Shown piece after piece: positions 1-22,696 of a DNA stretch of 32,000 nt (position 1 is its first letter; every line of letters starts with the position of its first letter). The position numbers and the translations under genes are program-made. The stretch comes from Nitrospirales bacterium (GTDB lineage Bacteria; Nitrospirota; Nitrospiria; Nitrospirales; UBA8639), in the NCBI GenBank assembly GCA_965204475.1, contig OZ241988.1:123545-155544 (forward strand). Reading direction: 5' to 3'. Under the pieces are notes generated by a model that saw only the letters and a program-made list of their open reading frames with translations, did not search any database and had not been told where the DNA came from.

Positions 1-772
1 TCAACGCGCGGCCGTCCTTGTAACGGGCGTGCATGAGTGCCTGCATGAAATCGTCGGGACAGGCCCCGGAACGCCGGCGTTGCGCCATGATCCGGCTGAA
101 GAGGTCGGCCACTCTTCGCCGGGCCCGGTCGCGGCTTCGATGCGCCGTGGTCGGAAGTCTGGGGAGAAAAAATCCCAGGGTGTTGATGCCTTTTTGCAGA
201 TCGTGATACGCCTCGGCAAAACCCGCGTCTATCTGATCCCGGACTTCCTGTCCAATGAGGCAGCGGCTGGCGATCCTGACGGTGAGCTCGTTCATCGCGA
301 CCGGCAGATCGATTTCCCCGTCCTCGCCGAGGGCGTCGGCGAACCACCTCGTCTCCTCGAACATGATGCGGGCAAACCTGCTCATCGCGGCTTCGCGGAG
401 CGCCGGAAACAGAAACCCCAGTTGCTCGTCCATGAGCTCGGGAGAGGCGTCATAAGCCACGCCGCGTCCGAAGATGGGAACAGTGAACTGATAGACGGCT
501 TTGGCGTTCAACTGATCCTCGGGCGCTCTGAAGTAAAAGTCGTGGGCTTCGGGTCCGGTGAAGAGCACAAACTGGCGGGGACCGAGCCGGAACCGGAAGA
601 GTTCGCCCTGCTCGCTCCAGCCGCGGCTCAACATCGAGATCGGATCCTTTAAAAAATCCGGCAGATGACCGATCAGCGGCCACCCGCCCGCGAGTTCGGG
701 AACGGCTTTGGCCGGCGGCGGCGAGAGCTGCGCCGAATGCGGGAGTGCTTCACTGTGAGACCGATGTGTCAT
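1..772 (-). CDS. cyp51: Sterol 14-alpha-demethylase (CYP51-family cytochrome P450), N-terminal ~257 codons; the gene continues past the left edge
   Basis: Missing from the ORF track because it has no stop in the window. Hand translation from the ATG at 772 (minus strand) stays open to position 2: MTHRSHSEALPHSAQLSPPPAKAVPELAGGWPLIGHLPDFLKDPISMLSRGWSEQGELFRFRLGPRQFVLFTGPEAHDFYFRAPEDQLNAKAVYQFTVPIFGRGVAYDASPELMDEQ...GEDGEIDLPVAMNELTVRIASRCLIGQEVRDQIDAGFAEAYHDLQKG... It carries the CYP51 B-prime/BC-loop signature Y-x2-F-x2-P-x-F-G-x-G-V-x-Y-D and is collinear with my recollection of M. tuberculosis CYP51 (FMTPIFGEGVVFDASPE; GEIDLLDFF..CLIGKKFRDQLD). The ATG lies 8 nt downstream of the sterol reductase stop. 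Confidence 0.85.
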   Translation of the reverse strand, partial: MTHRSHSEALPHSAQLSPPPAKAVPELAGGWPLIGHLPDFLKDPISMLSRGWSEQGELFRFRLGPRQFVLFTGPEAHDFYFRAPEDQLNAKAVYQFTVPIFGRGVAYDASPELMDEQLGFLFPALREAAMSRFARIMFEETRWFADALGEDGEIDLPVAMNELTVRIASRCLIGQEVRDQIDAGFAEAYHDLQKGINTLGFFLPRLPTTAHRSRDRARRRVADLFSRIMAQRRRSGACPDDFMQALMHARYKDGRAL

Positions 773-780
773 CCCTGTCC

Positions 781-1881
781 TCAAAAGACGCACGGCAGCA
801 TCGAATAACGCACCCGTTGCGTGTAGCGTTCCCACAACTCGCCGTACTTGGCGCGGCAACGGTGTTCATCACGTCTCGAACGATGCCACAACAGACCGGC
901 CAGCCACGCGGGCAACAGGTAGGGCGCCCAGGATTCGAACCCGGTGGTCAGGGTGAACGCGAGGTAAACGCAGATCTCGCCGGTATAGTTGAGATGCCGT
1001 CCAATACCCCAGAATCCGGAGACCAGCAGACGCCCGTCCAGGGACCGGGCGGGTTGTCCCCAAATCACGGCGTGGGGGTCACGCTTGAAGCGGTGTTTTT
1101 GCTCGTTGGCGCCGCGGAAGATCCAGAAGCCGAGGGCGAACAACAGGACGAGCGCGGCGGCGGCGACGGGAGACAGCGCTTCCGGAGCGTGGACCAGCCA
1201 CCAGCCGGCGAGGCAATAGAAAAACGGCACCAGCACGTAGTCTCCCCAAATCAACATCCATCCGAAGCGCTCACTGACGATGTCCCAGGTGTGGGTCATT
1301 CCGTATTCGAACTGGAAGTAGTTGAGCACGTACAGGAAGGTGAAGATCTGATAGAGCGCCATGGCCAGGGTCAGACCACCGTAGGTTTCGTACTGCACGA
1401 CGGCAAACGATGCGTTGAACAGCGCCAGGGCGATGAGGGACGGGCGGTAGCTGAAAAGCTTCAAATCCACCCCGAGCCAGGTCGGATTGAGCTCCACACC
1501 AAAGAAGAAACCCCGCCACGGTCCCGGTGGCGCATCCCGGGGCCGGGCTCCCCGCCAATACAGCCAGCCGGAAAGAGCGAAGGCGAATCCGTTTGTCACC
1601 ACGAACAAAGCGGCAAAGTGGCTATGCAGCACTGAAAGAGAAAACCAGCCGGAGACTTGGGCGAGACAGGCCACGGTCACGGTAATCAGGAATAAGGCAA
1701 GGCCGTTGAGCGTGTAGGTGGTTGATTGTCCTTCGACCTCCGGTCCGGTCACCCGCCGTCCGGGCAGGAGCATCGAACCCAGGAACAACGCGCCGACAAA
1801 CCCCGACACCATGGCCGCCGCCTCGAGCAGGGCGCCGCCCGACAGCGCGGACGACAGGACGTGCGGCTCAGGTCCCGGCAT
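781..1881 (-). CDS. ERG4/ERG24-family sterol reductase; C-14 reductase is favoured by adjacency to cyp51, but C-7 or C-24(28) specificity cannot be excluded
   Basis: 366 aa, polytopic and hydrophobic. C-terminal family signatures are LLVSGFWGIGRHLNYTGE and HRSRRDEHRCRAKYG, the latter matching R-x2-R-D-x3-C-x2-K-Y-G. Its start overlaps the upstream Rieske gene stop by 14 nt. Confidence 0.85.
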   Translation of the reverse strand: MPGPEPHVLSSALSGGALLEAAAMVSGFVGALFLGSMLLPGRRVTGPEVEGQSTTYTLNGLALFLITVTVACLAQVSGWFSLSVLHSHFAALFVVTNGFAFALSGWLYWRGARPRDAPPGPWRGFFFGVELNPTWLGVDLKLFSYRPSLIALALFNASFAVVQYETYGGLTLAMALYQIFTFLYVLNYFQFEYGMTHTWDIVSERFGWMLIWGDYVLVPFFYCLAGWWLVHAPEALSPVAAAALVLLFALGFWIFRGANEQKHRFKRDPHAVIWGQPARSLDGRLLVSGFWGIGRHLNYTGEICVYLAFTLTTGFESWAPYLLPAWLAGLLWHRSRRDEHRCRAKYGELWERYTQRVRYSMLPCVF

Positions 1882-2995
1882 CGCCGTTCTCCGTCCCGCG
1901 CGCCATGTACTCCCGCCACTTGCGCACGGTCACGTTTTGAAAAGCCCGTACCGCCGGATTGTACTCGATGGGAGGGGCGTCCCAATGTTGCTCGTAACCC
2001 TGCTGCTCCGCTTCGACCGCAACGCCGTCCTGGGCGAGTAACGGGCCGATGAGTACACGGTTCGAGATCTTCAACACCGCGGTCATGGCGAAACGGGGAA
2101 TATGTACCGGCAGCAAGGGCACCTTCAGTGACTTGAAGTAGAACAGGAAGAACGCCCGGGTGGTGCGCTCATCGATCGGGAGGACGAAAAGCCAGTGCTT
2201 GATCGCGTCATCGGTGTTCGACCACTGGTAGGGGTATTGATAGCACAGATCCATATGAGTGGTGTTGAGCCGGTTGTGATCGACAAACAGTCCGGAGATG
2301 CGTCCGCGACCGACCTGCGTATCGTAGGCCACGTGCACGTTGTCCCCGACGGTCTCGCACCGGGTCAGGACGGCGCCTTCTTCGAAGGGACGGTATTGAC
2401 GATGCAGGTGGGCGTGGGTGAAGTCGCTCACGTTGTCGATCACCATCGAGTGGTGGGCCGCCCAGGTGAAGACCAGCGGCTCACAGGCCCACCGCTCAGG
2501 GCCCTCGAGTTCGGGGATGTCCGGGATCCGGCGCAGTTCCGCTCGCTCCGGGTCCCCGGGGAACAACCAGACCAGACCGTAACGGACCTTCACGGGATAG
2601 GTTCTGAGCGGGAGCTTCGGAAGACCCCGTCCGTGGCGGTCGTGGGGGATCGCGACACAGCGCCCGTCGCCGTCGTACTGCCAGCCATGGTAGGCGCACA
2701 CGAGCCGGCAGCCTTGCACCTCGCCCATGGAGAGTTTGAGCTGGCGGTGCGCGCAGCGATTCTCGATCGCGTGAAACGAGCCGTCTTTCCCCCGGAAGAG
2801 CGCAATGGAATGTTTCCAGAAAATGACCTCGACCACCGTCCCCGGTTTGACCCGGCGCACCTCTTCAACCGCGTACCAATAATCCGGGTCCATGCCCGCG
2901 GCGCGGGCTTGCTGGCGCAAGCTGCCGGCCTCATCGAAGCCGGGTGGCGCACCCGGCGCCGGAATCACACTGAGTTTCCGTTTGGAGTTATCCAT
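1868..2995 (-). CDS. Rieske [2Fe-2S] non-haem iron oxygenase; candidate SdmA-like sterol C-4 methyl oxidase
   Basis: 375 aa. Rieske motif CAHRQLKLSMGE...LVCAYHGWQYD (C-x-H ... C-x2-H). DNVSDFTHAHLH resembles the mononuclear Fe(II) site. An 8-nt overlap (ATGGATAA) links it to the upstream dehydrogenase gene. Confidence 0.8.
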   Translation of the reverse strand: MDNSKRKLSVIPAPGAPPGFDEAGSLRQQARAAGMDPDYWYAVEEVRRVKPGTVVEVIFWKHSIALFRGKDGSFHAIENRCAHRQLKLSMGEVQGCRLVCAYHGWQYDGDGRCVAIPHDRHGRGLPKLPLRTYPVKVRYGLVWLFPGDPERAELRRIPDIPELEGPERWACEPLVFTWAAHHSMVIDNVSDFTHAHLHRQYRPFEEGAVLTRCETVGDNVHVAYDTQVGRGRISGLFVDHNRLNTTHMDLCYQYPYQWSNTDDAIKHWLFVLPIDERTTRAFFLFYFKSLKVPLLPVHIPRFAMTAVLKISNRVLIGPLLAQDGVAVEAEQQGYEQHWDAPPIEYNPAVRAFQNVTVRKWREYMARGTENGDAGT

Positions 2996-4112
2996 AGGCC
3001 CGGCTCGGAGAGAAATTGTCCACGGGTGTCGCGGCGGTCACGCACGGACGTTTCGCGAGCGGATTCGTGATCGCGTTGCGGTGGTAGTGAAAGGCGTAGG
3101 CCTCATGAACCGCAGCGCGGATACTGGTCGGCTGATAGCCGAGATCCCGTCTCGCTTTACCGACGTCGGCGTGCAAGCGTTTGCGCAACAGGCGAATGGC
3201 GCCCGGGGTGAAACGCTGGGGGAAGCTCGGGTGAAACCGGCTCAGATAAAAGCTCGTCATTTCCGAAAAAGCGAGCATCATGTTGGCCGGAATACGCCGG
3301 CACGGTCGCGGAACACCCGAGACCTCCTCGAACAGGTCCAGAATCTCGGAAATGGTTTTGTACTCGCTGCTGAAGATGTACTTTTCGCCCGAGCGTCCCA
3401 GGCGCATGCACAACAGGTGCCCTTCGACAATATCCCGCGACGCGACGAACTCGAACCCGCCGTCAACGTAAGCATGGAGCTTGCGGTTGCTGTAGTCACA
3501 CAAAGCTCTTCCCAATCGCGAGGGGAAAAAATCGGCGGGCCCGACCACGGCGCAGCACGTTGCCACCACGACATCCTGTCCCTTCGCCGCGGCGCGCCAG
3601 CACTCATGCTCGACAAGCGACTTGCTGCGCTCGTAGGGCATCGTGCGCTCCATGGGATAGAATTGCATCGTCTCGTTGGCGGGCGCGGACGGATTATCCA
3701 AATCGTACCCGACCGCACTGAAAGAGCCCGTCACCACCACCCGGCCGGCCCCTACCTCCCGCGCCGCTTGCAGCACGTTGCGGGTGCCGAGAACGTTGCA
3801 GTCGAACACTTCTCGGCGATGCGCGCGATTGCCTTCGATGGTCGAGATCTTGGCCGCGACGTGGTAGACGCCCTGACAGCCCTCAAGCGCACGCCGGGTT
3901 GCATCCAAATCCCGGATATCACCAAACCGGCGTTCAACGTCAAGACCTTCCAGTCCTTCGTTGTTGTCCTCGTGTCTCAGCAACACCCGGACCCGGACGC
4001 CGTCGTCGAGCAGCCGGCGCACCAGATTGGCGCCCACGTGCCCGGCCGATCCGGTGACGAAAACGGGCGGCGTCGATGCCCCGGCGGGTGTGCTCGATCC
4101 TGAGGTCATCAT
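2988..4112 (-). CDS. NAD(P)-dependent 3-beta-hydroxysteroid dehydrogenase/epimerase-family protein; candidate SdmB-like
   Basis: 374 aa. Rossmann motif VFVTGSAGHVGANLVRRLL and catalytic Y-x3-K (PYERSKS). Its start codon directly abuts the SMT stop (TGAATG). Confidence 0.8.
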   Translation of the reverse strand: MMTSGSSTPAGASTPPVFVTGSAGHVGANLVRRLLDDGVRVRVLLRHEDNNEGLEGLDVERRFGDIRDLDATRRALEGCQGVYHVAAKISTIEGNRAHRREVFDCNVLGTRNVLQAAREVGAGRVVVTGSFSAVGYDLDNPSAPANETMQFYPMERTMPYERSKSLVEHECWRAAAKGQDVVVATCCAVVGPADFFPSRLGRALCDYSNRKLHAYVDGGFEFVASRDIVEGHLLCMRLGRSGEKYIFSSEYKTISEILDLFEEVSGVPRPCRRIPANMMLAFSEMTSFYLSRFHPSFPQRFTPGAIRLLRKRLHADVGKARRDLGYQPTSIRAAVHEAYAFHYHRNAITNPLAKRPCVTAATPVDNFSPSRAYG

Positions 4113-5144
4113 TCAGTCTCCCGAGCGCCGGGGTTTACGGGCCACGAAGAAATACATCGGCGTAAAGACACCGGACCTGCCGCCTTCGACCAGCGCGTCC
4201 GCCGCCGCATTCAACAGCGTGCTGACCGCGCGGGCGCCTTCCGGAACCAACCGCAATTTCTCCCCAACCTGTAACGTCAAATTGGTCAAGGCGCGGCCGA
4301 TAGGTGTCCGCGGAATGCTCGAAAGACTGAGATCGCGACCCTGTAAAGCCCGGTACCATGGCGTTTCCGGATCCGATTCGGGGGCGAGGTCACGCGCTTC
4401 CAGAAGCTCGAATCCGGCCCTGCGCAATGCGGTGCAAACCTCCGATGTGAGGGCGATATCCGGTAACGCGTCCCCCACCATGATATCGTTCTTGATCCGC
4501 TGGTGCTCGGCGTTTCCCGGATCGAAAGTCTCGGTGAGACACCATTCGTAGCCCGCGAAACAAGCCCCCGGACGCAGAACGCGGAGAATTTCCCGGAACG
4601 CCGCTGTTTTGTCCGGCGCGTGGGGCATGGACTCGATGGCGAAGGCTGCATCGTAGTGGTTGTCACCTTCAAGAATCTGCATGTAATCGCCGTGGATGAA
4701 GCGGCACAACGACTGGACATCCCGGGTGTGTACCTTCGCGCGTTCGATCTGGTAGGGGTTGTTGTTGATACCGACAAAGCCGGCCCCGGAATAGCGGGCC
4801 AGATTGCCCATCGGCCCTCCTACCCCGCACCCCACGTCGAGCACTTGCATCCCCGGCTTCAGGGACAGCCGATCGGCGAGAAAATGCTGGTGCCTGAGCA
4901 GGGACGCTTTGAAGCTCTCGCCTTGGCGTCGGGGTGCAAAGTGAAAGGACTGACCCCAGCCGAACTCGTAGAAATCGGTCACCAGGTCGTAGTAGTGATT
5001 GACCAGCGATTGATAACGCTCTTTCCTGCTCTCCAGGCCGGCGTCGTAAATCCCGGAGTATTGATCGACCACGGATTTCACTTCATCCGGGGCCAGATCC
5101 GCGAGGGAACGAGAGTTGGATCGTTTGGCGGGCGTACGGCTCAT
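4113..5144 (-). CDS. Sterol C-24 methyltransferase (ERG6/SMT family), paralog 1
   Basis: 343 aa. Sterol-MT region I is YYDLVTDFYEFGWGQSFHFAPR. SAM motif I is VLDVGCGVGGPMG. The C-terminus GVFTPMYFFVARKP is typical of the sterol-MT C-terminal domain. Confidence 0.9.
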   Translation of the reverse strand: MSRTPAKRSNSRSLADLAPDEVKSVVDQYSGIYDAGLESRKERYQSLVNHYYDLVTDFYEFGWGQSFHFAPRRQGESFKASLLRHQHFLADRLSLKPGMQVLDVGCGVGGPMGNLARYSGAGFVGINNNPYQIERAKVHTRDVQSLCRFIHGDYMQILEGDNHYDAAFAIESMPHAPDKTAAFREILRVLRPGACFAGYEWCLTETFDPGNAEHQRIKNDIMVGDALPDIALTSEVCTALRRAGFELLEARDLAPESDPETPWYRALQGRDLSLSSIPRTPIGRALTNLTLQVGEKLRLVPEGARAVSTLLNAAADALVEGGRSGVFTPMYFFVARKPRRSGD

Positions 5145-5401: not shown

Positions 5402-5548
5402 TTGCCCCCTATGTTGTGGAAACACACAACGGTCCATCGGCGTACACCCCATTCCGGCACCGGACGAAATGGGCCCTGCTGAATGTCGTTAGAAACGGGC
5501 GCGGACGATGATAGAGTAGGGGCCATCAGCGAAACGAGGCACGCAGCG

Positions 5549-6907
5549 ATGCCGAAAAGGGTTGCCATTATCGGTGCGGGAGTCTCGGGACTGGGGGTGG
5601 CCTGGGCGCTGCATCAGCACCCCGATCGATTCGATTTTCGGCTGTTCGAAGCTCAGGCTCAGGTCGGCGGCAACGCCGTGACGGCCGACATGCCGCAAGA
5701 CGACGGCACCTCGATTCCGTTCGACATTTCCGTCACCGCGTGCATTCCCTCAGTCTACCACCACATTCTTCTGTTCATGCGGCAACACGGTATCGAGCTG
5801 GTCGATACCAGGTTCAGCTACAGCGTGAAGTACCAGGGCGGCGTCTATGCTCATGATTTCGACTCCGACATCAGGAGACAGTTGCAACCGGAAATCCAGA
5901 AATTCCAGAAGCTCCTGAGGCGTCTGAAATGGTTTGGCCGGCTCAACCGGTCCAGGTCCAGATTGCTCAATGCGCTCAACCCGTTCAACTACGTCAGCAT
6001 GGGTACGGTTCTCAACTTCGGCGGGTTCTCCGGAGATTTCAGGTACAAGATCCTGAAGCCCATGTTCGTCAACTTCCTGATGGCCACGAACGTGTTCGAC
6101 ATGCCCGCGTCCCTGTTTGCCCGGTATCTGGAGTTCTTCGATATTGAAACCGCAACGCCGATGCAAACCTGGGACCGGGGTACGCGGCGAATCTATGAAA
6201 ACATGTCGGCTGCCTTTCAGGACAAGATATACCTTAACCGACCGGTTCGAAAAGTGTACCGGCGTGCATCCGACGTCGTCGTAGAGGACGAGAACGGAAA
6301 CACGGAAACGTTTGATGACGTCGTGTTCTCGTGCAACGCGAATCAAACGCTGATGCTTCTGGATAAACCGGCCCTTCTGGAGCGCTGGATTCTCTCTTCG
6401 ATACGGTACGAGAGCGAACTGCACAACCACACGATCGTGCATTCGGACGCCTCGATTCTTCCGGACAACGAGGTCAAGCCGCTCGGCACCCGGAGCAACC
6501 ACATCGAGCAGTACGGTGTCCGACCCGACAACTACGAAATCACTTACATCATGCACAATCAGCAGCCTTGGGCGAATCGATCGGACAAACCGTGCCTGGT
6601 GACCTACAATCCGATCAGTCGTATCGACGAAGCCAAGATTGTCAAGAAGTGGTGGTTTCAGCACATCGTGCACGATGTGTCTCACATCGTCCTGCTGGTC
6701 CCGTTGTTTCGCTTCGTGCAAGGCAAACGGCGAACGTGGCACTGTGGCGCGCACACGCTGATCAACAGCCAGGAAACCTGTTTCGTGACCGGTCTTGTGA
6801 CAGCGAGACAGATCGGGGCGGACTATCCCTTTCAGGATTCCGAAGCCAGGAAATGGTTCAACTTCTACGGACGCGTGATGTACGGTTGGCGCTTGAGGAA
6901 GGCGTGA
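5549..6907 (+). CDS. NAD(P)/FAD-binding amine-oxidase-like oxidoreductase (COG2907-like)
   Basis: Dinucleotide-binding motif KRVAIIGAGVSGLGVAWAL...FEAQAQVGGN. I prefer the ATG at 5549 (GAGG lies 9 nt upstream) to the ORF-track start at 5483. The product is ~452 aa. Confidence 0.7.
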   Translation: MPKRVAIIGAGVSGLGVAWALHQHPDRFDFRLFEAQAQVGGNAVTADMPQDDGTSIPFDISVTACIPSVYHHILLFMRQHGIELVDTRFSYSVKYQGGVYAHDFDSDIRRQLQPEIQKFQKLLRRLKWFGRLNRSRSRLLNALNPFNYVSMGTVLNFGGFSGDFRYKILKPMFVNFLMATNVFDMPASLFARYLEFFDIETATPMQTWDRGTRRIYENMSAAFQDKIYLNRPVRKVYRRASDVVVEDENGNTETFDDVVFSCNANQTLMLLDKPALLERWILSSIRYESELHNHTIVHSDASILPDNEVKPLGTRSNHIEQYGVRPDNYEITYIMHNQQPWANRSDKPCLVTYNPISRIDEAKIVKKWWFQHIVHDVSHIVLLVPLFRFVQGKRRTWHCGAHTLINSQETCFVTGLVTARQIGADYPFQDSEARKWFNFYGRVMYGWRLRKA

Positions 6908-7156: not shown

Positions 7157-8071
7157 ATGAGACGTATTCCATACCGGACAATGATTCTTCAACGAATTTT
7201 TGTTGCGACGGTTGCCCTTGCCGTGTTTCTTCTGCCGGTGTTCTCACCCGATGCGCGCGCGTCGGAGCCGAGATGGTACGTCGGCTTGAGCGTCCCGGTC
7301 ATGTTCCTTGACGACTCGGAGAGCGTCACGAGCGGGACATCCCTTGGAAGCCAGTACAGCGCGAACGCCACCAACGAATACAAGGCGGGGTTCAAGGTCA
7401 GCGGCATGGTGGGCCGTGAATTCGGCAACGGCTTCCGTCTCCAGGTCGAAGGTTTCTTCGCCAGGGCCGATGTCAACAAGCTGACCTACAACGGGATCAC
7501 CTCTTCCGCGTTGCAGGGTGTCGATATTGAGGACGTGAACATCCCCGTGTCCGGCCCGGCAGACCAATTGGGCGCCATGGTGAACGTCTGGTACGACTTC
7601 AATGAAGGCTCCCGCTGGAGACCCTTCATCGGCGGCGGCCTGGGCTTCGTCCAGGTCGATTGGGGCGGCGTGGATTATGAAGTTGGTGCGCTCGAGCAAT
7701 CGATTGCGAACCAGACTGCGCTCGCTGGCGCGCTTCAACATGCACAAGCCATGGGCTTACCTCCGGGCGCCCCCCTGCCTCAAGCGGCCAGAGATGCGGC
7801 ACTGGCCCAGGCCCAACTGCCCCCGGGGACTGTGCCAGACCTTTCCGGCACCGATACGGTGTTCGCCTTTAAGGTCGGCGGGGGACTGGGCTACGAGCTC
7901 ACCAATCACATTACCCTCCAGGTCAGCTACCGCTTCTTCAAAACCAACCAGTTGGAGTTCAACGGCAGGAATGCTATTGAGGTCATGGGTAATACGGTGG
8001 TCAATACGGTCAAGGCGACGTCCGATTTGCAAGGTCATCTCTTCGAGGTGGGTGTACGCTATCGTTTCTAG
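7157..8071 (+). CDS. Outer-membrane beta-barrel protein (OmpA-like/OMP_b-brl family) with signal peptide
   Basis: 304 aa. GAGGAG lies 5 nt upstream of the ATG. The signal peptide ends in ARA/SE. The body has alternating beta-strand-like segments and a C-terminal aromatic residue (...FEVGVRYRF). Confidence 0.75.
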   Translation: MRRIPYRTMILQRIFVATVALAVFLLPVFSPDARASEPRWYVGLSVPVMFLDDSESVTSGTSLGSQYSANATNEYKAGFKVSGMVGREFGNGFRLQVEGFFARADVNKLTYNGITSSALQGVDIEDVNIPVSGPADQLGAMVNVWYDFNEGSRWRPFIGGGLGFVQVDWGGVDYEVGALEQSIANQTALAGALQHAQAMGLPPGAPLPQAARDAALAQAQLPPGTVPDLSGTDTVFAFKVGGGLGYELTNHITLQVSYRFFKTNQLEFNGRNAIEVMGNTVVNTVKATSDLQGHLFEVGVRYRF

Positions 8072-8111: not shown

Positions 8112-9140
8112 ATGACAGCCGGTCGAGACGAGCGCCTCCCCTCGCTTTCTCCCTTTCCGGAAGGCTGGTTCTTTGTCGCCGGCCGCAAGACGATCGAAAA
8201 GGCGAAGTTGGTCAAAAAAACCTGGATGGGCGAACAGATCGTTGTATGGTGCGACGAGGAAGGACGCATCTGTGTGGCCGAGGCGGTCTGTGCGCACATG
8301 GGTTCCGACCTGGGGCCGGAAGCCGGGGGCCGCGTGCGCAACGGCTGCCTCGTCTGCCCGTTCCACGGCTTCCAGTACGATGTCACCGGCCAATGCGTGG
8401 CCACGCCCTACGCGTCGGCGCCCAGGACCGCCAGGCTGAAGGTCTTCCACACGCGTGAAATCCTGGGTCTGGTTTTTGGCTGGTGGGGCATTGACGGACG
8501 GCCGCCGCAATGGGAGCTGCCGGAAGCGCCGCCGACCGGAGACGACTGGTGCGATTTGGATTTCTGGAGCGTCCGGGTCCCGGGGCATCCCCAGGAAACG
8601 ACCGAGAACTCCGTGGACCTGGGCCATCTGCGCTACGTGCACGGCTACAGCAGCGTGAACGCGATCGGTTCGGTGTCAATCGACGGCGCCTACCTCAAGA
8701 GTTGCTTCGACTTCAAGCGAACCCAGACCATCGCCGGGATCAAGGTCTTCGCGTATGATGTTTCCGCGGTCACCCACGTGTACGGGTTGGGCTATTCGTT
8801 CGTCGAGGTTCACGAGCGTGCGATCGACATGCAGACGCGTTTGTGGGTGCTGGCTACGCCCATCGACGGCAGACTCGTCGAACTGGTGCTGGTCAGCCAC
8901 GTGCGGCGAATCCTGAGACCGAAGCGGCCAATCGTGGGCATGCGCTTCCTGCCGTCACGCCTGCGCACCAGGCTCATGAACAAGATCATCATGGCGGCTC
9001 AAAAGCGGGATGTCATGCAGGACGTCGTGATCTGGGGCCGAAAACACTATCGGCCCCGCCCCATTTTATGTCGCTCGGACGGGGAGATTGGAACGTATCG
9101 GCGTTATTGCGAGCAATTCTATCCGGATCGTCCGGATTGA
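8112..9140 (+). CDS. Rieske [2Fe-2S] non-haem iron oxygenase, paralog 2 (Neverland/KshA-like architecture)
   Basis: 342 aa. Rieske motif CAHMGSDLG...LVCPFHGFQYD. Fe(II) motif ENSVDLGHLRYVH (D-x2-H-x4-H). Confidence 0.8.
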   Translation: MTAGRDERLPSLSPFPEGWFFVAGRKTIEKAKLVKKTWMGEQIVVWCDEEGRICVAEAVCAHMGSDLGPEAGGRVRNGCLVCPFHGFQYDVTGQCVATPYASAPRTARLKVFHTREILGLVFGWWGIDGRPPQWELPEAPPTGDDWCDLDFWSVRVPGHPQETTENSVDLGHLRYVHGYSSVNAIGSVSIDGAYLKSCFDFKRTQTIAGIKVFAYDVSAVTHVYGLGYSFVEVHERAIDMQTRLWVLATPIDGRLVELVLVSHVRRILRPKRPIVGMRFLPSRLRTRLMNKIIMAAQKRDVMQDVVIWGRKHYRPRPILCRSDGEIGTYRRYCEQFYPDRPD

Positions 9141-9172: not shown

Positions 9173-10207
9173 ATGCGACTAGGCAAACTATCGAACTGGC
9201 TGAAGGATGCGTACCGGGAAGAGGACGTCACCCGTCAGGTGCAACACTTCGACGGCTGGATCGATCGGGCGAAGCCGGAGGATGTCGTCGCGAGCCGGTA
9301 CGATCACACCGAAACGGTGAAAGAGTACTACGATCTCTGCAGCCCATTCATGGTCTACGGTTGGGGTGAATCCCTGCACTTCGCGCCCCTTACGCCTTGG
9401 GAGAGTCTGGAGGACTCCAAAGTCCGGCATCAGCGGTTGATGATCGCCAAGCTGGAGTTGCACCCGGGCATGACAATCGTCGATGTCGGGTGCGGCGTCG
9501 GCGGCCCGATGCGCCGGGTCGTCCGGGAGGCCGGTGTCCGGGTTGTCGGGATCAACATCAATCAAATCCAGTTGGCGAACGCGAAACGGGAGAACTCCGA
9601 GGCGGGGCTCGACCACATGGTCGATTACGAGGCGTGCAGCTTCATGGACATGAGCGCCATCAAAGACGAGACGTTCGACTGCGGTTATGCCATGGAGTCA
9701 ACGTGCCACGCGCCGGACAAGGAACGCGCGTTCGCGGAGATATTCCGGGTGCTGAAACCCGGAGCCCTGTTCTGGGGTCAGGAAATGTGTCTGACGGACA
9801 AGTACGATCCGAACGACAGCCGGCACCGGGCCATCAAGCGGGATCTCATGCATGGCATTGCGCTGCAGGACATTGCGACGTTCGGGGAAGTGAATCATGC
9901 GCTCGAAGCGGCGGGATTCCACGTCATCGAGGAGATGGACCGGGACGTCCAGGAGGGACCATCCACACCATGGTATCAACCCATGGAGACACGGCATGGG
10001 ACCCTCGGTAACGCCTTGTGCAGGCTTCCATGGGGCCGCAAAGTATTTATGGCGGGATCGAAGCTGGCCGAGGTGCTGCGGCTGTTTCCGAAGGGCTCCG
10101 CGGAGGTTGTCCGCCTCATGGATCGGACCGCGGAGGCCTACGTCGCGGGCGGCAAGTCGGGGATCTTCACGCCGTTGTACTGTTTTCTAGCCCGCAAACC
10201 CCTTTAG
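9173..10207 (+). CDS. Sterol C-24 methyltransferase (ERG6/SMT family), paralog 2
   Basis: The ATG at 9173 (MRLGKLSNW...) is preceded by AGGTGAAAGGGGA. The ORF-track start at 8843 would overlap the Rieske gene. Motifs: YYDLCSPFMVYGWGESLHFAP, IVDVGCGVGGPM, and C-terminal GIFTPLYCFLARKP. Confidence 0.88.
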   Translation: MRLGKLSNWLKDAYREEDVTRQVQHFDGWIDRAKPEDVVASRYDHTETVKEYYDLCSPFMVYGWGESLHFAPLTPWESLEDSKVRHQRLMIAKLELHPGMTIVDVGCGVGGPMRRVVREAGVRVVGININQIQLANAKRENSEAGLDHMVDYEACSFMDMSAIKDETFDCGYAMESTCHAPDKERAFAEIFRVLKPGALFWGQEMCLTDKYDPNDSRHRAIKRDLMHGIALQDIATFGEVNHALEAAGFHVIEEMDRDVQEGPSTPWYQPMETRHGTLGNALCRLPWGRKVFMAGSKLAEVLRLFPKGSAEVVRLMDRTAEAYVAGGKSGIFTPLYCFLARKPL

Positions 10208-10328: not shown

Positions 10329-12356
10329 TCAGACGGGCAGTTCGCGCCTCCGCTCCGCGATGCGGAACTTCAGCTTCTTGCTGGGCTTCATCGACGGAAG
10401 GGGGTCGAACCGAAGCTTGTAGTTCTCGGGAGCTACCTCGATCGTGAAGTAATGCGCGACCATCAGCACGTTGACGGCCAATTGCAGTTCCAGCCACCGG
10501 GAGCCGAGACACGTGTGCGTGCCCAGCCCGAACGGGGCGTACCCGGGCTTGAGGTGCTCATTGCGCGGAGGCAGATACCGGTCGATATCGAATGTGAAGG
10601 GGTCGGGAAAGACGTCTTTCATGTAATGCGTGGCCGTCTGGGCAATATAGATGTTTGTCCCGACCGGCAGTTCGTAGTCCTCGACCACGCACGCATTCAT
10701 CACGGTTCGAATAGACATCGGGACGATCGGGTACATGCGCAGGCACTCCATGAGGAAGCGGTGCGTGACGTCAAGTGCGGACAGGGTGAAGTCCTCGGCA
10801 TCAGGGTCGCCGCTGTCGAACAGGGCATCGGCTTCATTCTGGATTTTGGCATAGAACTCGGGCTGCGACGCCATGGCGTACAACGCAAAGCTGAACGCAT
10901 CGCCAAGGTACACGCTGGCGATCAGCGCTGCTGAAAGCTGGAAGCGCAACGTCGTCTCCGGCACGAACTGCGGATCGCTTGCGTGCAGGCTGAGCCAGTC
11001 GTCCGCAAGGTTCCGTGGAGAACCAGCACGCTGCGCGGGTGTATGGACGCTCTGGATCCGTTCCAGCAGCGTATCCACGGCTTTCGCCCGGCGTCTCATG
11101 CCCGGAGTTTTCAGCATGAACTTGGGCAGCATCTTCACAATGTGGACGAGGAGTGCTCGTTCCTTATACTTCGCCAGATCGTCAAAGATATCCTGAGAAT
11201 CAACGCTGACAAAGAGCGGTGAGAGCTGCGCGTTGACCATCTGCCGGCTCATGTTCGTCGCAGTATAGGAGTCTCCGACCGTCCAATTCGCCATGTGATT
11301 TCTGGCATGATGATAGAGTTGGTCCAACTGCCCTTCCAGTCTTCTGCGGGAATACGCCGCCGACATGGACTTGCGAAGCCGGAAATGATCGGCGCCGTCC
11401 AAGGAAGGCATTACTCCGGACGCGCCGTAGACCTTCTCGAAGTCATTAAAATAGTCCTTGGTTCTCAGGTACATGCGCCCGCGCTTATGCGCCCAGCGGT
11501 TTGTCTCGGACCCGGCCAGAAAGATCATGGGCTTCGCAAACGGCGGGCGGATCTCGAACACCGGGCCATACTCTTGCGCAAGGTCCGCAAAGAGCGCGGG
11601 AATGTTGCCCTTGCGCACATGTGGACTGAGCAGCACTTTATGTAGCGAAGCAGTCGGAATCTTCTTGGTCAGGGCGGAATGTCGAAGCAAGGGGCCGGCC
11701 AAGTTGTGGGAGACCGCATCGGCGATGGACCGGCCGATCAAATCCATCTTACAGATGAGCCGGATGCGCTCTTCCGACTCCTCATCGAGTTGGAATATGA
11801 AGCGGAAGACGTCGCACGTATTGACGAGGCAAATAACGATGATGTCTCTCGGATCGGGAATCTCGTTCATGAAGATGGCCCTGCTGATCCGCGTTTTGAC
11901 GAACTGACCTGCAGTGCCTTCAGGGGAGTTGCCGTACCGTTCCGTCTGCCAGCCGGTATGAGCCAGCGTCCAGAACTCGCCGTCGTGGTATTCCAGGATC
12001 TTCAGGTTGACCAAACGATCCAGAGTCAAATCAATGACTGATTCCGCACGGGGGGCGAGCCGTTCAATCCAGAACTGTGTGCTTCGTTGAATTGGTTCGC
12101 TTGCAATCTCTTTCAGAATGGGGTCCAGGGCGGGGTCGCCCGTTTCTGTCGGGTCCACGAGGAACAGAGATTCCATGTCCGTGTCGATGCGCGACAGGAG
12201 GGAGAGTTCCGCGAGTACTGCGCCGGCGACGGCGCAGTTCAAATCCCAGCCGGGTACTTGGTGAAAGTATCCGTTCTCCTCGTTGAGGAGCATCAGGATG
12301 AGCTCTTCGGGCAAACTGAGCGTTTGGGTCGTCAAACCCTCTTTAGTCACAGCCAT
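10329..12356 (-). CDS. Fusion protein: N-terminal GPP34/GOLPH3-family domain (~residues 12-215) plus C-terminal cytochrome P450 (~residues 240-675)
   Basis: 675 aa. The N-terminus, LSLPEELILMLLNEENGYF...AVAGAVLAELSLLSRI...LDRLVNLKILE, is typical of GPP34. The P450 part has YGPVFEI, the ExxR motif (ECLRMYP) and the haem-thiolate loop FGLGTHTCLGSRW. Confidence 0.8.
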   Translation of the reverse strand: MAVTKEGLTTQTLSLPEELILMLLNEENGYFHQVPGWDLNCAVAGAVLAELSLLSRIDTDMESLFLVDPTETGDPALDPILKEIASEPIQRSTQFWIERLAPRAESVIDLTLDRLVNLKILEYHDGEFWTLAHTGWQTERYGNSPEGTAGQFVKTRISRAIFMNEIPDPRDIIVICLVNTCDVFRFIFQLDEESEERIRLICKMDLIGRSIADAVSHNLAGPLLRHSALTKKIPTASLHKVLLSPHVRKGNIPALFADLAQEYGPVFEIRPPFAKPMIFLAGSETNRWAHKRGRMYLRTKDYFNDFEKVYGASGVMPSLDGADHFRLRKSMSAAYSRRRLEGQLDQLYHHARNHMANWTVGDSYTATNMSRQMVNAQLSPLFVSVDSQDIFDDLAKYKERALLVHIVKMLPKFMLKTPGMRRRAKAVDTLLERIQSVHTPAQRAGSPRNLADDWLSLHASDPQFVPETTLRFQLSAALIASVYLGDAFSFALYAMASQPEFYAKIQNEADALFDSGDPDAEDFTLSALDVTHRFLMECLRMYPIVPMSIRTVMNACVVEDYELPVGTNIYIAQTATHYMKDVFPDPFTFDIDRYLPPRNEHLKPGYAPFGLGTHTCLGSRWLELQLAVNVLMVAHYFTIEVAPENYKLRFDPLPSMKPSKKLKFRIAERRRELPV

Positions 12357-12410: not shown

Positions 12411-12619
12411 AATATAACGCTTAGGTTAAAGTAGGGCAAGACCTATTCAGAGATCTAAAGCAAAGTACAGGTTCTGGTACGTAGTGGATCACTCCGCCAA
12501 GTATCCGCGGAGAGTGAAGAAGTTCGAAAGTCTTGACTGGGGCGTGGCGAAGCGAGGTGCCCTGCGCCTGTTTGTGCCTTCACCCGGCGTCAGGATTGAA
12601 TATGGTGTCGAGCTTGTGG

Positions 12620-12662: not shown

Positions 12663-14897
12663 TTACCCCAAGGTGGCGAGGATGTTGTTGAACGTGGCGC
12701 TCGGGCGCATGGCCGTTGCGACCTTCGCCGGATCGGGGTGGTAATAGCCGCCGATGTCCATGGCCTTGCCTTTCACGGCCTTCAACTCGTCGAGGATTTT
12801 CTCGACGTTGGCCTCGAGCTCTTTTGCCACGGGCGCAAACTTTTCCCGTAACGTTGGATCGTCGGTTTGCGCGGCGAGTTCCTGTGCCCAATACAGGGCT
12901 TCGTACACGTGGGTGCCGATGTTGTCCAACTCGCCCAGCACCCGGCCGGGTGCCTTGCGGTTTTCCATGAGCTTGCCCGTGGCCCGGTCCAGGGTATTCG
13001 CAAGGACTTGCGCCTTCTTGTTGTTACGGGTCCGGCTGAGGTGAGCAAAGGATTCCGCCAAGGCGAGAAATTCACCGAGAGAATCCCATCGCAAATGCCC
13101 TTCTTTCACGAACTGCTGGACGTGTTTCGGGGCCGATCCGCCGGCGCCCGTTTCAAATAAGCCACCGCCGTTGATGAGTGGAACAATGGAGAGCATCTTG
13201 GCGCTGGTGCCCAGTTCCAGGATCGGAAACAGGTCGGTGAGATAATCCCGCAACACGTTGCCCGTCGCGGCAATGGTGCTTTGCCCGTCCTTGGCCCGTT
13301 TGAGAGAATGCTTCATGGCATCCACCGGGGCCATGATTTGGATGTCCAAGCCCGTCGTATTATGGTCTTTCAAATAGCGGTTCAGCTTTTCGATGAGCTG
13401 CGCGTCGTGTGATCGGTTCTTGTTCAACCAGAACACCACCGGCATTCCGGACGCCTTGGACCGATTCACGGCCAGCTTCACCCAGTCCTGAATCGGAATG
13501 TCCTTGACCGTACAGGCGCGGAAGATGTCGTCTTTTTCCACTGCCTGTTCGAGCAGGACGTTCCCGGCTCCATCCATCACGCGGATGGTTCCATTTCCGG
13601 GCGCCTCGAAGGTCTTGTCGTGCGATCCGTATTCTTCGGCTTTCTGGGCCATGAGACCCACGTTGGGCACGCTGCCCATGGTGGCCGGATTGAAGGCTCC
13701 ATTCTCACGGCAGAAGTCCGCCACGGCCTGATAAATCCCCGCGTAACTGCGGTCCGGGATCATGGCCTTCGTGTCGTATTCCTTACCGTCCGGTCCCCAC
13801 ATTTTCCCGCCGACGCGAAGCGCCGCGGCCATCGACGCATCGATGATGATGTCGCTCGGCACGTGCAGGTTGGTGATGCCCCGGTCCGAGTCCACCATCG
13901 CGAGGTCCGGGCCGTTTTGCATGGCCGCTTGCAGGTCGGCTTTGATTTCTTCCTGCTGCGCGGCGGGCAGGGAGCCGATTTTCGCATAGACGTCGCCCAA
14001 CCCGTTGTTGGGATTGACTCCGAGATCGGCAAAGACCTTTTCATGTTTCTTGAAGACGTCCTCAAAATAGACGGACACGCAATGGCCGAAAATAATGGGG
14101 TCCGAGACTTTCATCATGGTCGCCTTCATGTGCAGCGACAGGAGAATGCCGCTTTTCTTGGCCTCCTCAACCTGTTCCTTGAAGAATTGCCGTAATGCGC
14201 CGGCGCTCATTTTCGTGGCGTCCACCACGTCACCCTTGTCGAAGGTGACGCTGTCTTTCAATACGGTCGTGCCGCCGTCCGCGCCGACGAATTCGATGCG
14301 GCCCTTTCCCGCCGTTTGTTCGGTAATCGTCGTTGATTTTTCATTGGAAAAGAAGTCTCCACCCGACATGGACGCGACGTGCGTTTGTGAATCTTTGGCC
14401 CATGCCCCCATTTTGTGAGGATTCTTTTGGGCATATTGTTTCACGGAGGACGACGCCCGACGATCCGAATTGCCTTGTCGCAGCACCGGGTTTACCGCGC
14501 TGCCTTTCACCTTGTCGAACTTCGCCTTGATGGTCTTTTCTTCATCGGTCTTGGGGTCTTCGGGGTAATCGGGAATGGCGTACCCCTGGGATTGCAATTC
14601 GGCCACCGCGCCTTTGATTTGAGGAATCGATGCGCTAATATTCGGGAGTTTGATGACGTTGGCTTCCGGCGTTTCCACCATTTCGCCGAGGATGGCGAGA
14701 TCATCGGGTTGCCGTTGTTCCGGCTTCAAGCTGTCGGGAAATTGCGAGATAATTCGGCCGGCCAGCGAAATATCCTTCCTGCCGACGTTCACGCCTGCGG
14801 TATTGGCAAAGGCCTGGATAACCGGCAGAAACGAACCGCTCGCCAGTTCCGGAGCCTCGTCGACTTTTGTATAGATAATATCCGGTTCTGCTGACAT
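12663..14897 (-). CDS. icd: Monomeric NADP-dependent isocitrate dehydrogenase
   Basis: ~744 aa from the ATG at 14897. GGAGGAGG lies 5 nt upstream, whereas the ORF-track start at 14918 has no SD. The N-terminus, [24 protein letters not shown]...[14 protein letters not shown], matches the monomeric IDH family (Azotobacter type). Confidence 0.92.
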
Positions 14898-15018
14898 GTG
14901 TTCCTCCTCCATGTTCAAGGTTGTGAAAGATTAACAAATCAACCGGAATACGATTCCGGAGACCGAACAAAGAATTTTAGAGAGAACCGGCATTCGACGC
15001 AATCAACCGAAAGCCCCA

Positions 15019-17685: not shown

Positions 17686-17735
17686 CGGTCGTTGAAAGAG
17701 ATCTTTGCAAACATATTGAGACGTAGGAGAGTTCG

Positions 17736-19562: not shown

Positions 19563-19633
19563 CAACATTGACGGTTTCCTTTGACCCGGTCCGCAAAAGG
19601 ATCGGGGCTCGGAAGCCATGCGGAGAACGTCCT

Positions 19634-21883: not shown

Positions 21884-21976
21884 ATGCGTTTCTTCCCTTC
21901 GCTCCGCTTCCTTCGGCTAGGCTCAGGACAGGCAGGGGAGGCAAAGGAGGGGAACAGAGGAGTACGGCAAACGAAT

Positions 21977-22696
21977 ATGACGGGTTCATTCGATACGGGC
22001 AAAGCGGTTAGCCGGGAAGACGCGCTCAAACCGCCCATGGTCACGGTGGAAATCGCGGGGAAATCCTTCCGGGTTCCGGCGGGCATTACCCTGATGAAGG
22101 CCCTCTGGTATACCGGCCACGAAGTCACGCGGGGGGCAGGGTGCCTGGGCGGGTTTTGCGGGGCTTGCGCGACCTATTATCGCACCAAGGACGACCCGAA
22201 AGTAAAAACCTGCCTGGGATGTTCGCACGCGGTGGAAGACGGCATGTCGTTTTCGTTTGCCCCGGCGTTTCCCGCGCGCAAGGCCACGTACGATTTGAAT
22301 CAGCTCGAAAACCCCAAGCAGGACCTGTTCAAGTTGTACCCGGAAGCGCCCCTGTGCAGGAACTGCAACGCGTGCACCGAAGCCTGCCCTCAACAGATCG
22401 ACGTGCGGGAAGGCGTGTGGAAAGCCGTGTTCGGGGACTTCAAAGCGGTGTCGGAAACGTTCATGGACTGCGTGATGTGCGGCCTGTGCGTGCCCGTGTG
22501 CATCGCCGATATCGCGCCGAACTTGGTGGGGGTCTATGCCAGTCGAGCCTACGGCGTACGCGAAATGGAAAAACCGTCCGGCCTCTTCGACCGGATTCAA
22601 GCCATTGCCGATGGACAGTACAACGACGACTGGGACCGCATCCTGAAGATGAGCGATGACGAATTACAACAGACCTCGGCCACGATCACGTCGTAG
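21977..22696 (+). CDS. Iron-sulfur subunit of a succinate dehydrogenase/fumarate reductase-like enzyme (2Fe-2S plus two Cys-cluster motifs)
   Basis: CLGGFCGACATYY...C (plant-ferredoxin-like), CRNCNACTEACP and CVMCGLCVPVC. The start is uncertain: 21884, 21977 and 22037 are all in frame. I chose 21977. Confidence 0.7.
   Translation: MTGSFDTGKAVSREDALKPPMVTVEIAGKSFRVPAGITLMKALWYTGHEVTRGAGCLGGFCGACATYYRTKDDPKVKTCLGCSHAVEDGMSFSFAPAFPARKATYDLNQLENPKQDLFKLYPEAPLCRNCNACTEACPQQIDVREGVWKAVFGDFKAVSETFMDCVMCGLCVPVCIADIAPNLVGVYASRAYGVREMEKPSGLFDRIQAIADGQYNDDWDRILKMSDDELQQTSATITS

Follow-up and report, generated by a model that had tools for sequence, protein, structure and literature searches.

A GPP34–cytochrome P450 fusion in a Nitrospirales sterol gene cluster: a putative sterol or triterpenoid tailoring enzyme linked to a mobile gene cassette

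Introduction

Bacterial proteins in which a GPP34 domain, the fold of the eukaryotic Golgi adaptor GOLPH3, is joined to a cytochrome P450 (P450) have been described under the name GPP34_L, which accounts for 656 of 663 long GPP34 proteins, all from sponge symbionts (Ferreira et al. 2025, Microbiome, PMC11706023). In that study, GPP34_L was found in 85.7% of 21 sponge Nitrospirota metagenome-assembled genomes (MAGs), which carried the long form only, and was transcribed in situ in Aplysina aerophoba. The GPP34 proteins were proposed to be secreted effectors that bind phosphatidylinositol 4-phosphate (PI4P) and stop the phagosome from maturing; the term 'sterol' does not appear, and no analysis of signal peptides or of PI4P-pocket residues is reported. 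Here we analyse a GPP34–P450 fusion encoded in a stretch of 32,000 nucleotides from a Nitrospirales bacterium (contig OZ241988.1, positions 123,545 to 155,544), hereafter the window, by which the whole stretch is meant. We propose that its product is a cytoplasmic P450 that oxidises a sterol or a triterpenoid and carries its GPP34 domain as a docking module, a reading to which we give somewhat better than even odds (about 55%).

The window protein has the architecture and the size of GPP34_L and is a further member of this known, uncharacterised family. The original prediction, made from the letters of the window, knew of no characterised P450 with a GPP34 partner. This stands insofar as no member has been biochemically characterised in the literature searched, but the architecture itself is already published. 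In contrast to the PI4P effector proposed for GPP34_L, the family appears here tied to genes of sterol and triterpenoid tailoring, and its PI4P pocket is degenerate. The linkage of the fusion to sterol or triterpenoid tailoring and export genes across phyla, as well as the degeneracy of the PI4P site, appear to be unreported, and the literature searched contains no paper that links GPP34 with bacterial sterols.

GOLPH3 and Vps74, eukaryotic Golgi proteins that act as PI4P effectors and as adaptors for glycosyltransferases, are the closest described relatives of the N-terminal domain. The PI4P pocket of GOLPH3 is formed by W81, R90, R171 and R174 (Wood et al. 2009, PMC2806290). Furthermore, GOLPH3 uses an acidic face to capture the short basic tails of membrane enzymes, and contact with the bilayer is made by PI4P and a beta-hairpin (bioRxiv 10.1101/2025.06.26.661719). 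With regard to the P450, two other fusions offer a comparison. The CYP51-ferredoxin of Methylococcus capsulatus (PDB 6mcw/7snm) is also a P450 fusion from a bacterial sterol cluster, whereas the partner in the window protein is not a redox domain and is placed at the N-terminus. P450 BM3 (CYP102A1) is likewise a single-polypeptide fusion, and its haem domain ranks with the nearest structural matches to the window P450 (template modelling score, TM, about 0.8), but its partner is a C-terminal electron-transfer domain, unlike the N-terminal partner found here, which contains no redox domain by Pfam.

The genomic setting has its own precedent in a MAG labelled 'Nitrospira sp., coral reef', with a sterol cluster in the order sterol methyltransferase (SMT; ...270), three unlisted genes, a second SMT (...274), sdmB, sdmA, ERG24, ERG11 and a gene for squalene monooxygenase–oxidosqualene cyclase (SMO-OSC) (Brown, Giner and Welander 2023, PMC10070321). 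The '1 of 2' SMT (...274) made (epi)codisterol from desmosterol in vitro (PMC10070321). The gene order of this cluster matches that of the window, where SMT1 is the positional ortholog of ...274 and SMT2 that of the '2 of 2' SMT. By position, the three unlisted genes correspond to a KshA-like Rieske oxygenase, an outer-membrane beta-barrel protein and a flavoprotein, and the fusion would be ...269. The portions of the text and supplements of PMC10070321 that were available hold no mention of a P450 other than ERG11, of a Rieske KshA-like gene or of GPP34; neither the fusion nor the Rieske oxygenase nor the flavoprotein, all extra members of the cluster, has an assignment there.

The fusion gene and its architecture

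The gene is a single open reading frame (ORF) that runs from ATG to stop and encodes 675 amino acids (Table 1). The original prediction had described one unsplit ORF with a GPP34-family N-terminal region followed by a complete P450 with ExxR and FGLGTHTCLG motifs, and the domain searches bear this out. Pfam GPP34 (PF05719) matches aa 15-216 with 98.0 bits (cutoff 29.1) over profile positions 1-199 of 201, and Pfam p450 (PF00067) matches aa 245-663 with 130.9 bits (cutoff 22.8) over profile positions 14-459 of 462; the two motifs lie at aa 537-540 and 609-618. Among 5.8 billion proteins searched, more than 2,200 relatives were found. Both Pfam domains are present in 240 of the 240 homologs listed, 120 of them the closest (76-100% identity) and 120 diverse (31-51%), each as one chain of about 655-690 aa, and an exhaustive search of 50%-identity representatives yielded dozens of distinct full-length clusters. 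An identical protein (P0001, 100%) is on record, carried by a contig of 2.26 Mb, and copies come from independent assemblies, many of them on complete chromosomes. Given the number of homologs, the presence of both domains in all those listed and the independent assemblies that include complete chromosomes, the fusion is a genuine gene and not a frameshift or an assembly artefact.

The AlphaFold model of the full-length protein has a mean predicted local distance difference test (pLDDT) of 84.9 and a predicted template modelling score (pTM) of 0.76. Since the P450 domain alone, which makes up 64% of the chain, could account for 0.64, the model suggests that the two domains pack in a fixed arrangement. 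The protein lacks both a signal peptide and a transmembrane helix, and its sole hydrophobic peak is a helix of the buried core.

Table 1. Positions of the fusion gene, its parts and the neighbouring genes in the window.
Feature	Position	Strand	Evidence or remark
GPP34–P450 fusion gene, 675 aa	10329..12356	-	ORF call and both Pfam domains
GPP34/GOLPH3-fold domain, aa 15-216	11709..12314	-	Pfam, hhalign, Foldseek
PI4P-pocket remnant, first half: W37 kept (GOLPH3 W81), A44 for R90	12225..12248	-	hhalign
Equivalents of GOLPH3 R171..R174: E105-S-V-I108	12033..12044	-	hhalign
GPP34-fold beta-hairpin LEYHDGEFWTL, aa 121-131	11964..11996	-	both AlphaFold models and hhalign
Inter-domain linker, aa 217-244, of low confidence only at aa 223-227	11625..11708	-	AlphaFold model
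Cytochrome P450 domain, aa 245-663	10368..11624	-	Pfam and Foldseek
I-helix oxygen-activation site ASVYLGD, aa 480-486	10899..10919	-	alignments
ExxR motif ECLR, aa 537-540	10737..10748	-	alignments
Haem-thiolate loop FGLGTHTCLG, aa 609-618, Cys616	10503..10532	-	alignments
Promoter-like TTGCCC-17-TATATT, within the AT-rich gap of 306 bp that precedes the fusion gene	12411..12439	-	weak: bare consensus match
SMT2, sterol C-24 methyltransferase homolog, convergent with the fusion gene	9179..10207	+	Pfam Sterol_MT_C
KshA-like Rieske oxygenase, cassette partner	8112..9140	+	Pfam Rieske and KshA_C
Outer-membrane beta-barrel protein	7157-8071	+	
Amine-oxidase-fold flavoprotein, cassette partner	5483..6907	+	Pfam
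Core sterol genes SMT1, SdmB-like, SdmA-like, ERG4/ERG24	781..5144	-	gene order as in the Nitrospira MAG of PMC10070321
SMT1, sterol methyltransferase	4113-5144	-	
SdmB-like reductase	2988-4112	-	293 bits
SdmA-like Rieske C-4 methyl oxidase	1868-2995	-	407 bits
ERG4/ERG24	781-1881	-	
CYP51, N-terminal 287 aa, running off the left edge of the window	2..859	-	tblastn, 89.5% identity to the CYP51 of sister cluster L002

The P450 domain

Cys616, E537, R540 and R593 (the last in FDIDRY, the PERF region) are invariant in 41 diverse fusions, and Cys616 also in an alignment of 93 sequences. Together with the profile match, the P450 is complete and is predicted to bind haem. The canonical AGxxT acid-alcohol motif of the I-helix, which the original prediction could not find by eye, is missing from the window clade in both alignments. 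The window clade reads ASV-YLGDAFSF where distant members have AG.DT, so that Tyr483-Leu484 occupy the Asp-Thr positions, with a one-residue deletion in the same region. The acid-alcohol pair (A/G)Gx(D/E)T is typical of the P450 superfamily, albeit not universal. With its Asp-Thr pair replaced by Tyr-Leu, as judged from the alignments, oxygen activation in the window clade must be non-canonical. Precedents for P450s without textbook proton delivery include substrate-assisted catalysis and non-monooxygenase outcomes.

By Foldseek, the structural neighbours of the domain are CYP184A1, BM3, CYP97C1, CYP46A1, CYP120A1 and CYP51, all with a TM of about 0.8 and 16-21% identity. P450 families are delimited by the usual rule of 40% identity, and by this measure the fusion P450 is a family of its own. 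In the PDB, its best sequence match is the CYP51 of Methylococcus (72 bits, about 20% identity). The possibility that the fusion is itself a CYP51 was rejected, as the CYP51 of the sister cluster L002 scores 338 bits against the same Methylococcus protein and the fusion P450 has a gap of five residues at the 'GHHTSS' segment of the CYP51 I-helix. Because of this low score and the separate CYP51 gene in the cluster, the sequence comparisons indicate that the fusion P450 is an additional P450 and not the 14-demethylase of the cluster. A redox-partner fusion of the BM3 or the CYP51-ferredoxin type was likewise rejected: GPP34 is the sole second domain by Pfam, which detects no flavodoxin, ferredoxin or reductase domain in the protein. 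The P450 domain is basic, with a net charge of +5 and an isoelectric point (pI) of 8.9.

The GPP34 domain

The N-terminal domain has the GOLPH3 fold. An hhalign comparison of the fusion family with human GOLPH3 gave a probability of 97.4% (E 1.2e-11, 189 columns), and the AlphaFold model of the domain (pLDDT 81.7, pTM 0.81) retrieved eight PDB entries by Foldseek at E<=1e-3, all of them GOLPH3 (TM 0.66-0.67) or Vps74. The beta-hairpin is present, with strands at aa 121-124 and 128-131 that align with the beta3/beta4 hairpin of GOLPH3, and the acidic surface is shared as well. The PI4P pocket, in contrast, retains only its tryptophan (W37, GOLPH3 W81): R90, R171 and R174 are replaced by A44, E105 and I108, alanine being the family consensus at the R90 position, and ten residues next to the pocket are deleted. 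Over aa 1-225 the net charge is -17 and the pI 4.5, as opposed to a net charge of 0 for the GOLPH3 core; the median in the fusion family is -16 (range -24 to -5). Further differences from GOLPH3 and Vps74 are the lack of the COPI-binding N-terminal tail and the covalent fusion to an enzyme, where GOLPH3 and Vps74 bind their clients in trans. The lost pocket, the acidic charge and the missing signal peptide make PI4P binding unlikely, as far as the sequence can tell, and argue against classical secretion, while a specialised secretion system remains compatible.

These observations bear on the model of Ferreira et al. 2025, in which the symbiont would release the protein into the phagosome or cytosol of its host and there, with PI4P as the ligand, the protein would keep the phagosome from maturing, the contribution of the P450 being unspecified. 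The fold is truly GOLPH3-like and conserves W81, but the replacement of the three arginines, family-wide in the case of the alanine, and the deletion by the pocket speak against the proposed ligand, and a net charge of -17 is unfavourable for an anionic lipid. Expression in the sponge, horizontal spread as with other symbiosis factors and a distribution almost confined to host-associated MAGs, with enrichment in sponge symbionts (PMC11706023) and agreeing names of the recovered genomes, would all suit an effector. Nevertheless, a haem P450 needs bacterial redox partners, no signal peptide is found, and the gene lies within lipid-tailoring and efflux operons, sometimes with overlapping start and stop codons, and not beside secretion systems. 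We therefore consider an effector role improbable for the fusion.

The original prediction saw in GPP34 a phosphoinositide-binding or membrane tether, or a module that presents the substrate. The fold, the hairpin and Trp37 on which this idea could build are indeed kept; the phosphoinositide part is weakened by the lost arginines and the charge, and the membrane part by the soluble stand-alone P450s described below. As a more general proposal, which concerns the role of GPP34 only and is compatible with the other readings, the domain could contact lipid or membrane directly instead of docking onto a protein: the substrate is presumably a membrane lipid, and the hairpin of GOLPH3 contacts the bilayer (bioRxiv 10.1101/2025.06.26.661719). 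We find this doubtful, given that the basic pocket residues are gone, that a domain of net charge -17 would face anionic bacterial membranes and that the stand-alone P450 relatives lack a membrane anchor. To our knowledge, GOLPH3 has no lipid-carrying cavity either. The idea that GPP34 substitutes for an N-terminal membrane anchor was examined separately and is unsupported, as none of 21 stand-alone P450 relatives has a transmembrane helix; they are ordinary soluble P450s.

Since the bacterial domain has kept and even exaggerated the acidic character of its eukaryotic relative, a protein-docking role is, by analogy with GOLPH3, the best-supported guess for it, and still a guess. The MMPL transporters found among the partners of the fusion bear basic N-terminal tails, which offer a lead only; the positive-inside rule predicts basic N-terminal tails anyway. 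No stand-alone GPP34 gene was seen beside a stand-alone P450 in 16 metagenomic GPP34-only loci, an arrangement that has been reported in two actinobacterial clades (Ferreira et al. 2025, PMC11706023).

Conserved gene neighbourhood and horizontal transfer

The original prediction placed the gene in a sterol cluster, and the window confirms this setting with ERG4/ERG24, SdmA-like and SdmB-like genes, two SMTs, a KshA-like gene and the N-terminus of a CYP51. On the minus strand the order of transcription is SMT1, SdmB-like, SdmA-like, ERG4/ERG24 and CYP51. To place this neighbourhood in a wider frame, 84 loci of the window clade (type A, by its I-helix) were compared: the window, the 80 closest from a collection with one genome per species and three more obtained by exact look-up, with a genome scan seeded by a 10-sequence alignment of close relatives and neighbours counted within ±10 kb. 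The type-A proteins are 72-93% identical to the window protein and come from at least eight named phylum-level lineages, over which the clade as a whole spans 66-93% identity. Dehalococcoidia/Chloroflexota account for 53 loci, Latescibacterota for 11 and Gemmatimonadota for 5, and further carriers belong to Nitrospirota, Binatia, Verrucomicrobiota, Thermodesulfobacteriota, Rhodothermaceae and Alphaproteobacteria. Apart from the identical P0001, the closest ortholog (93%) is found in Nitrospirales Plut_88904 (locus L004, JAAXIB010000027.1), and one of 92% in Nitrospira sp. SB0662_bin_26. Most carrier MAGs have names that follow the sponge-MAG naming of PMC11706023 (SB06xx, APA_bin), which is a matter of names only, and the statement that GPP34–P450 proteins are exclusive to sponges may be too narrow, with other marine invertebrates as additional hosts.

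The similarity of the fusions does not follow taxonomy. The median pairwise identity is 72.7% within phyla and 72.2% between them, with a cross-phylum maximum of 89.8%. Sequence comparison thus indicates that the fusion is spread by horizontal transfer, and the copies on closed chromosomes mean that mis-binning is no explanation. The neighbours are shared across these lineages. A KshA-like Rieske oxygenase lies near the fusion in 66 of the 84 loci, an SMT in 65, a resistance-nodulation-division (RND) transporter of about 826 aa in 48, the amine-oxidase-fold flavoprotein in 42 (about 80% identity), an AcrB-type pump in 21 and an LppX/LprAFG-type lipoprotein in 19. Considering the four core partners (Rieske oxygenase, SMT, transporter and flavoprotein), 78 loci have one or more, 67 two or more and 49 three or more. 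From lineage to lineage the genes change their order and orientation while the linkage persists, so that the linkage is kept by selection and not by inheritance alone. Furthermore, the partner proteins are 62-80% identical across phyla, which indicates that the gene set travels as a cassette.

Several of these partners point towards sterols or steroids. SMT2 is the most constant immediate neighbour of the fusion across phyla. The best PDB match of the KshA-like gene is KshA, the 3-ketosteroid 9alpha-hydroxylase (101 bits), and the 826-aa transporter is matched by the MMPL, sterol-sensing and Patched families in Pfam and by HAE3/HpnN-like families in NCBIfam. The flavoprotein has its best PDB matches in LkcE, the lankacidin amine oxidase (81 bits), followed by 2b9w, a 'putative aminooxidase' (36 bits), which we take to be the Propionibacterium fatty-acid double-bond isomerase. 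If so, it is conceivable that the flavoprotein moves or makes a C=C bond of a sterol. Genes for de novo sterol synthesis adjoin the fusion in eight loci, namely in five of the six from Nitrospirota and in one each from Thermodesulfobacteriota, Binatia and Opitutales, and in none of the 53 Chloroflexota loci.

The same neighbourhood could be read as one of steroid uptake and catabolism, in which host sterols would be imported and degraded as a carbon source, by analogy with cholesterol catabolism in actinobacteria, the counterparts being a side-chain P450, KshA as the oxygenase of ring opening, flavin adenine dinucleotide (FAD) dehydrogenases and lipid transporters. The KshA-family Rieske oxygenase is the most frequent partner, its best PDB match is the 3-ketosteroid 9alpha-hydroxylase, FAD oxidoreductases co-occur with MMPL and LppX/LprAFG-type lipid-handling proteins, and most carriers, the Chloroflexota, are without adjacent sterol synthesis genes. 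An SMT has no place in such a pathway, however, and beta-oxidation, Hsa-type meta-cleavage, KstD and KshB are all missing from the recurrent neighbour families. Additionally, in Nitrospirales, Binatia, Thermodesulfobacteriota and Opitutales the cassette has genes of biosynthesis next to it, and Nitrospirales with a reductive tricarboxylic acid (TCA) cycle are autotrophs. Catabolism thus seems to us a very unlikely function.

The composition of the cassette differs in some respects between lineages. In most Chloroflexota copies the 826-aa transporter (13195-15675 (-) in locus L036, and 47 other loci) is located between SMT2 and the KshA-like gene, often accompanied by an LppX/LprAFG-type lipoprotein. 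The Nitrospirales cassette is devoid of this transporter and has the gene for the outer-membrane beta-barrel protein instead. The sterol genes next to the cassette also show features of their own. Squalene epoxidase and oxidosqualene cyclase (SE-OSC) are one fused gene of 1156 aa in L002 (13995-17465 (-)) and also in L010, L027, L029, L030, L073 and L125; in the supplement of Brown et al. 2023 (PMC10070321), ERG1 and ERG7 matches fall on one gene ID. Among Nitrospirota, Thermodesulfobacteriota, Binatia and Opitutales, CYP51, SE-OSC, ERG4/24, SdmA, SdmB and SMT1 are 73-93% identical (L027, L029 and L073 compared with the core sterol genes of the window). On the basis of these identities, these symbionts appear to exchange the whole sterol pathway and not the cassette alone.

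Distant clades of the family

The family can be divided by the I-helix into type A (ASV-YLGD, the window clade), type B (ASI-YLGS), type C (AGH-Y[L/T]GS) and type D (AG.DT or the CYP51-like AGLHT). Types B and C, which are sister clades, are 43-51% identical to the window protein, and type D 30-38%. The sampled B and C loci resemble the type-A cassette in content. One context contains a KshA-Rieske gene, the flavoprotein, a second fusion in tandem and AcrB; another an SMT, two fusions and a tripartite RND pump; a third a polyprenyl synthase, an RND pump, the flavoprotein and SdmB-like and SdmA-like genes; and a fourth a KshA-Rieske gene, IspH, two squalene/phytoene synthases and MMPL. A metagenomic B/C locus (L125) carries a complete sterol cluster with SMT, SE-OSC, CYP51, ERG4/24, SdmA and SdmB.

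In type D, the clade with the canonical I-helix, the sampled loci (L084, L086, L090-L097 and L164) have a gene for a conjugating enzyme directly after the fusion, and usually an exporter of the major facilitator superfamily (MFS) or of the RND type close by. One fusion is translationally coupled to the gene for a squalene/oxidosqualene cyclase of 634 aa, whose stop codon it overlaps, and precedes a sulfotransferase; one precedes two sulfotransferases and an adenosine 5'-phosphosulfate (APS) kinase; five precede an Acyl_transf_3 membrane acyltransferase, one of these with genes for 3'-phosphoadenosine 5'-phosphosulfate (PAPS) synthesis upstream; and behind four others come an APH/ecdysteroid-kinase-like phosphotransferase and an MFS exporter. 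Such enzymes directly downstream are the pattern expected if the P450 creates a hydroxyl group that is then conjugated.

Such a pattern also recalls detoxification in the style of phases I, II and III: the P450 would hydroxylate toxic lipophilic metabolites of the host or of neighbours, for instance terpenoids or further natural products of the sponge, conjugation would fall to the adjacent enzymes and expulsion to RND or MFS pumps, and sterols would not be the physiological substrate. Sponges are chemically rich habitats, type D has its sulfotransferase, acyltransferase or kinase downstream of the fusion, and tripartite RND, MMPL or MFS exporters are very frequent neighbours. It is the identity of the constant partners that tells against this alternative, namely an SMT with the Sterol_MT_C domain, a homolog of a KshA-type steroid oxygenase and a transporter with a sterol-sensing domain, as well as the de novo sterol genes beside eight type-A fusions and the squalene synthases and the triterpene cyclase beside members of other clades. 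Methylation by an SMT is, moreover, a biosynthetic rather than a detoxifying step. On balance, detoxification appears unlikely to be the main function.

Paired GPP34–P450 paralogs, side by side in tandem or convergent orientation, were found in several genomes (L087 10001-14263, L088 10001-14063, L109 and L110), which suggests that the family diversifies through local duplication.

Other features of the window

At the left edge of the window, the called start of CYP51 overlaps the end of ERG4/ERG24 by about 78 nt. An Rfam scan around the fusion gene and the gap upstream of it revealed no regulatory RNA. Right of the fusion, the window encodes a monomeric isocitrate dehydrogenase as well as a set of reductive TCA enzymes (16489-26617 (+)), with two ATP-citrate lyase subunits, aconitase, succinyl-CoA synthetase and an Fe-S protein and flavoprotein pair of the fumarate reductase/succinate dehydrogenase type, which fits an autotrophic member of the Nitrospirales. 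These genes and the orthologs of 92-93% identity in Nitrospira and Nitrospirales MAGs assign the window to an uncultured, host-associated bacterium of this order. The GC content drops to 0.40 at 27001-28000 and to 0.45 at 31001-32000, compared with about 0.59 elsewhere in the window. The first of these stretches holds a nuclease-related gene with a NERD domain (27044-28177), and recent acquisition of the DNA is probable.

Proposed function

Taken together, we favour a two-domain cytoplasmic enzyme in which a haem-thiolate P450 would oxidise a sterol or a related triterpenoid, with the GPP34 domain packed onto it. The fusion would be an accessory tailoring enzyme, distinct from the 14-demethylase, and would belong to a mobile cassette with the SMT, the KshA-like Rieske oxygenase and the amine-oxidase-fold flavoprotein, often joined by an RND transporter of the HpnN/sterol-sensing type and an LppX-like lipoprotein, that is common to host-associated bacteria of many phyla. 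In Nitrospirales, where the cassette lies beside the de novo pathway, it probably decorates the sterols of the cell itself; where there is no adjacent pathway, as in 53 of 53 Chloroflexota loci, it may act on host-derived sterols. The GPP34 domain is most likely a docking or adaptor module, which would keep the soluble P450 on the inner side of the membrane, near its lipid substrate or a membrane-protein partner, by means of its acidic surface and hairpin, in the way the acidic face of GOLPH3 holds the basic tails of membrane enzymes. With Tyr-Leu in place of Asp-Thr, oxygen activation may be substrate-assisted, or the outcome may be a desaturation or another atypical reaction. The side-chain role that the original prediction offered as an example, that of a C-22 desaturase analogue (the activity of CYP710 and CYP61), is pure speculation. 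The proposal builds on observations, namely the domains and motifs, the lost PI4P pocket, the charge, the linkage to neighbouring genes and the horizontal spread; which class of substrate is oxidised, by what chemistry, and whether GPP34 acts as an adaptor are inferred from them.

A number of points weigh against this proposal. The sterol substrate class is read from the gene neighbourhood, and six of the 84 type-A loci have none of the four partner genes. The P450 has no close characterised relative, and among its structural neighbours are enzymes that act on fatty acids, carotenoids and retinoids besides those that act on sterols. For the SMT2 ortholog of the coral-reef cluster, the '2 of 2' SMT, an in vitro activity is not found in the available text of PMC10070321. 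Genes for a ferredoxin or a reductase are missing from the 10 kb around the fusion in all 84 type-A loci, where ferredoxin motif scans gave spurious shadow ORFs only. The adaptor role of GPP34 is drawn from analogy, and the stand-alone P450 relatives manage as ordinary soluble enzymes. Finally, the RND pumps and the conjugating enzymes, when considered by themselves, fit detoxification equally well.

A broader version of the proposal can be put forward only tentatively. The fusions might be signature enzymes of a horizontally exchanged toolkit for the tailoring and export of sterols and triterpenoids in sponge (and coral) symbionts, with GPP34 as an enzyme-docking adaptor that works through its acidic face and is unrelated to PI4P or to escape from the phagosome. 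Symbionts of many phyla would then remodel their own sterols or those of the host, and the clade with the Tyr-Leu I-helix would run a non-canonical P450 reaction on sterols.

Implications for symbiont sterol biology

Two published lines of work have each seen half of this locus, one the GPP34–P450 proteins as a marker of sponge symbiosis and the other the working SMTs of symbiont sterol clusters, which complicate the use of 24-isopropylcholestane as a biomarker of early animals. The fusion is the immediate neighbour of such an SMT gene in most genomes and moves between phyla together with it. If the sterol-tailoring role is correct, the published effector model is probably wrong for the long form, and the sterol chemistry of symbionts would extend past methylation, possibly acting on host sterols. 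In bacteria, the GPP34 fold would also serve to dock enzymes, a point of relevance to how the eukaryotic Golgi adaptor arose. Should the broader toolkit proposal hold as well, symbiont enzymes beyond the SMTs would help to generate the unusual sterols of sponges, including those behind the oldest 'animal' biomarkers.

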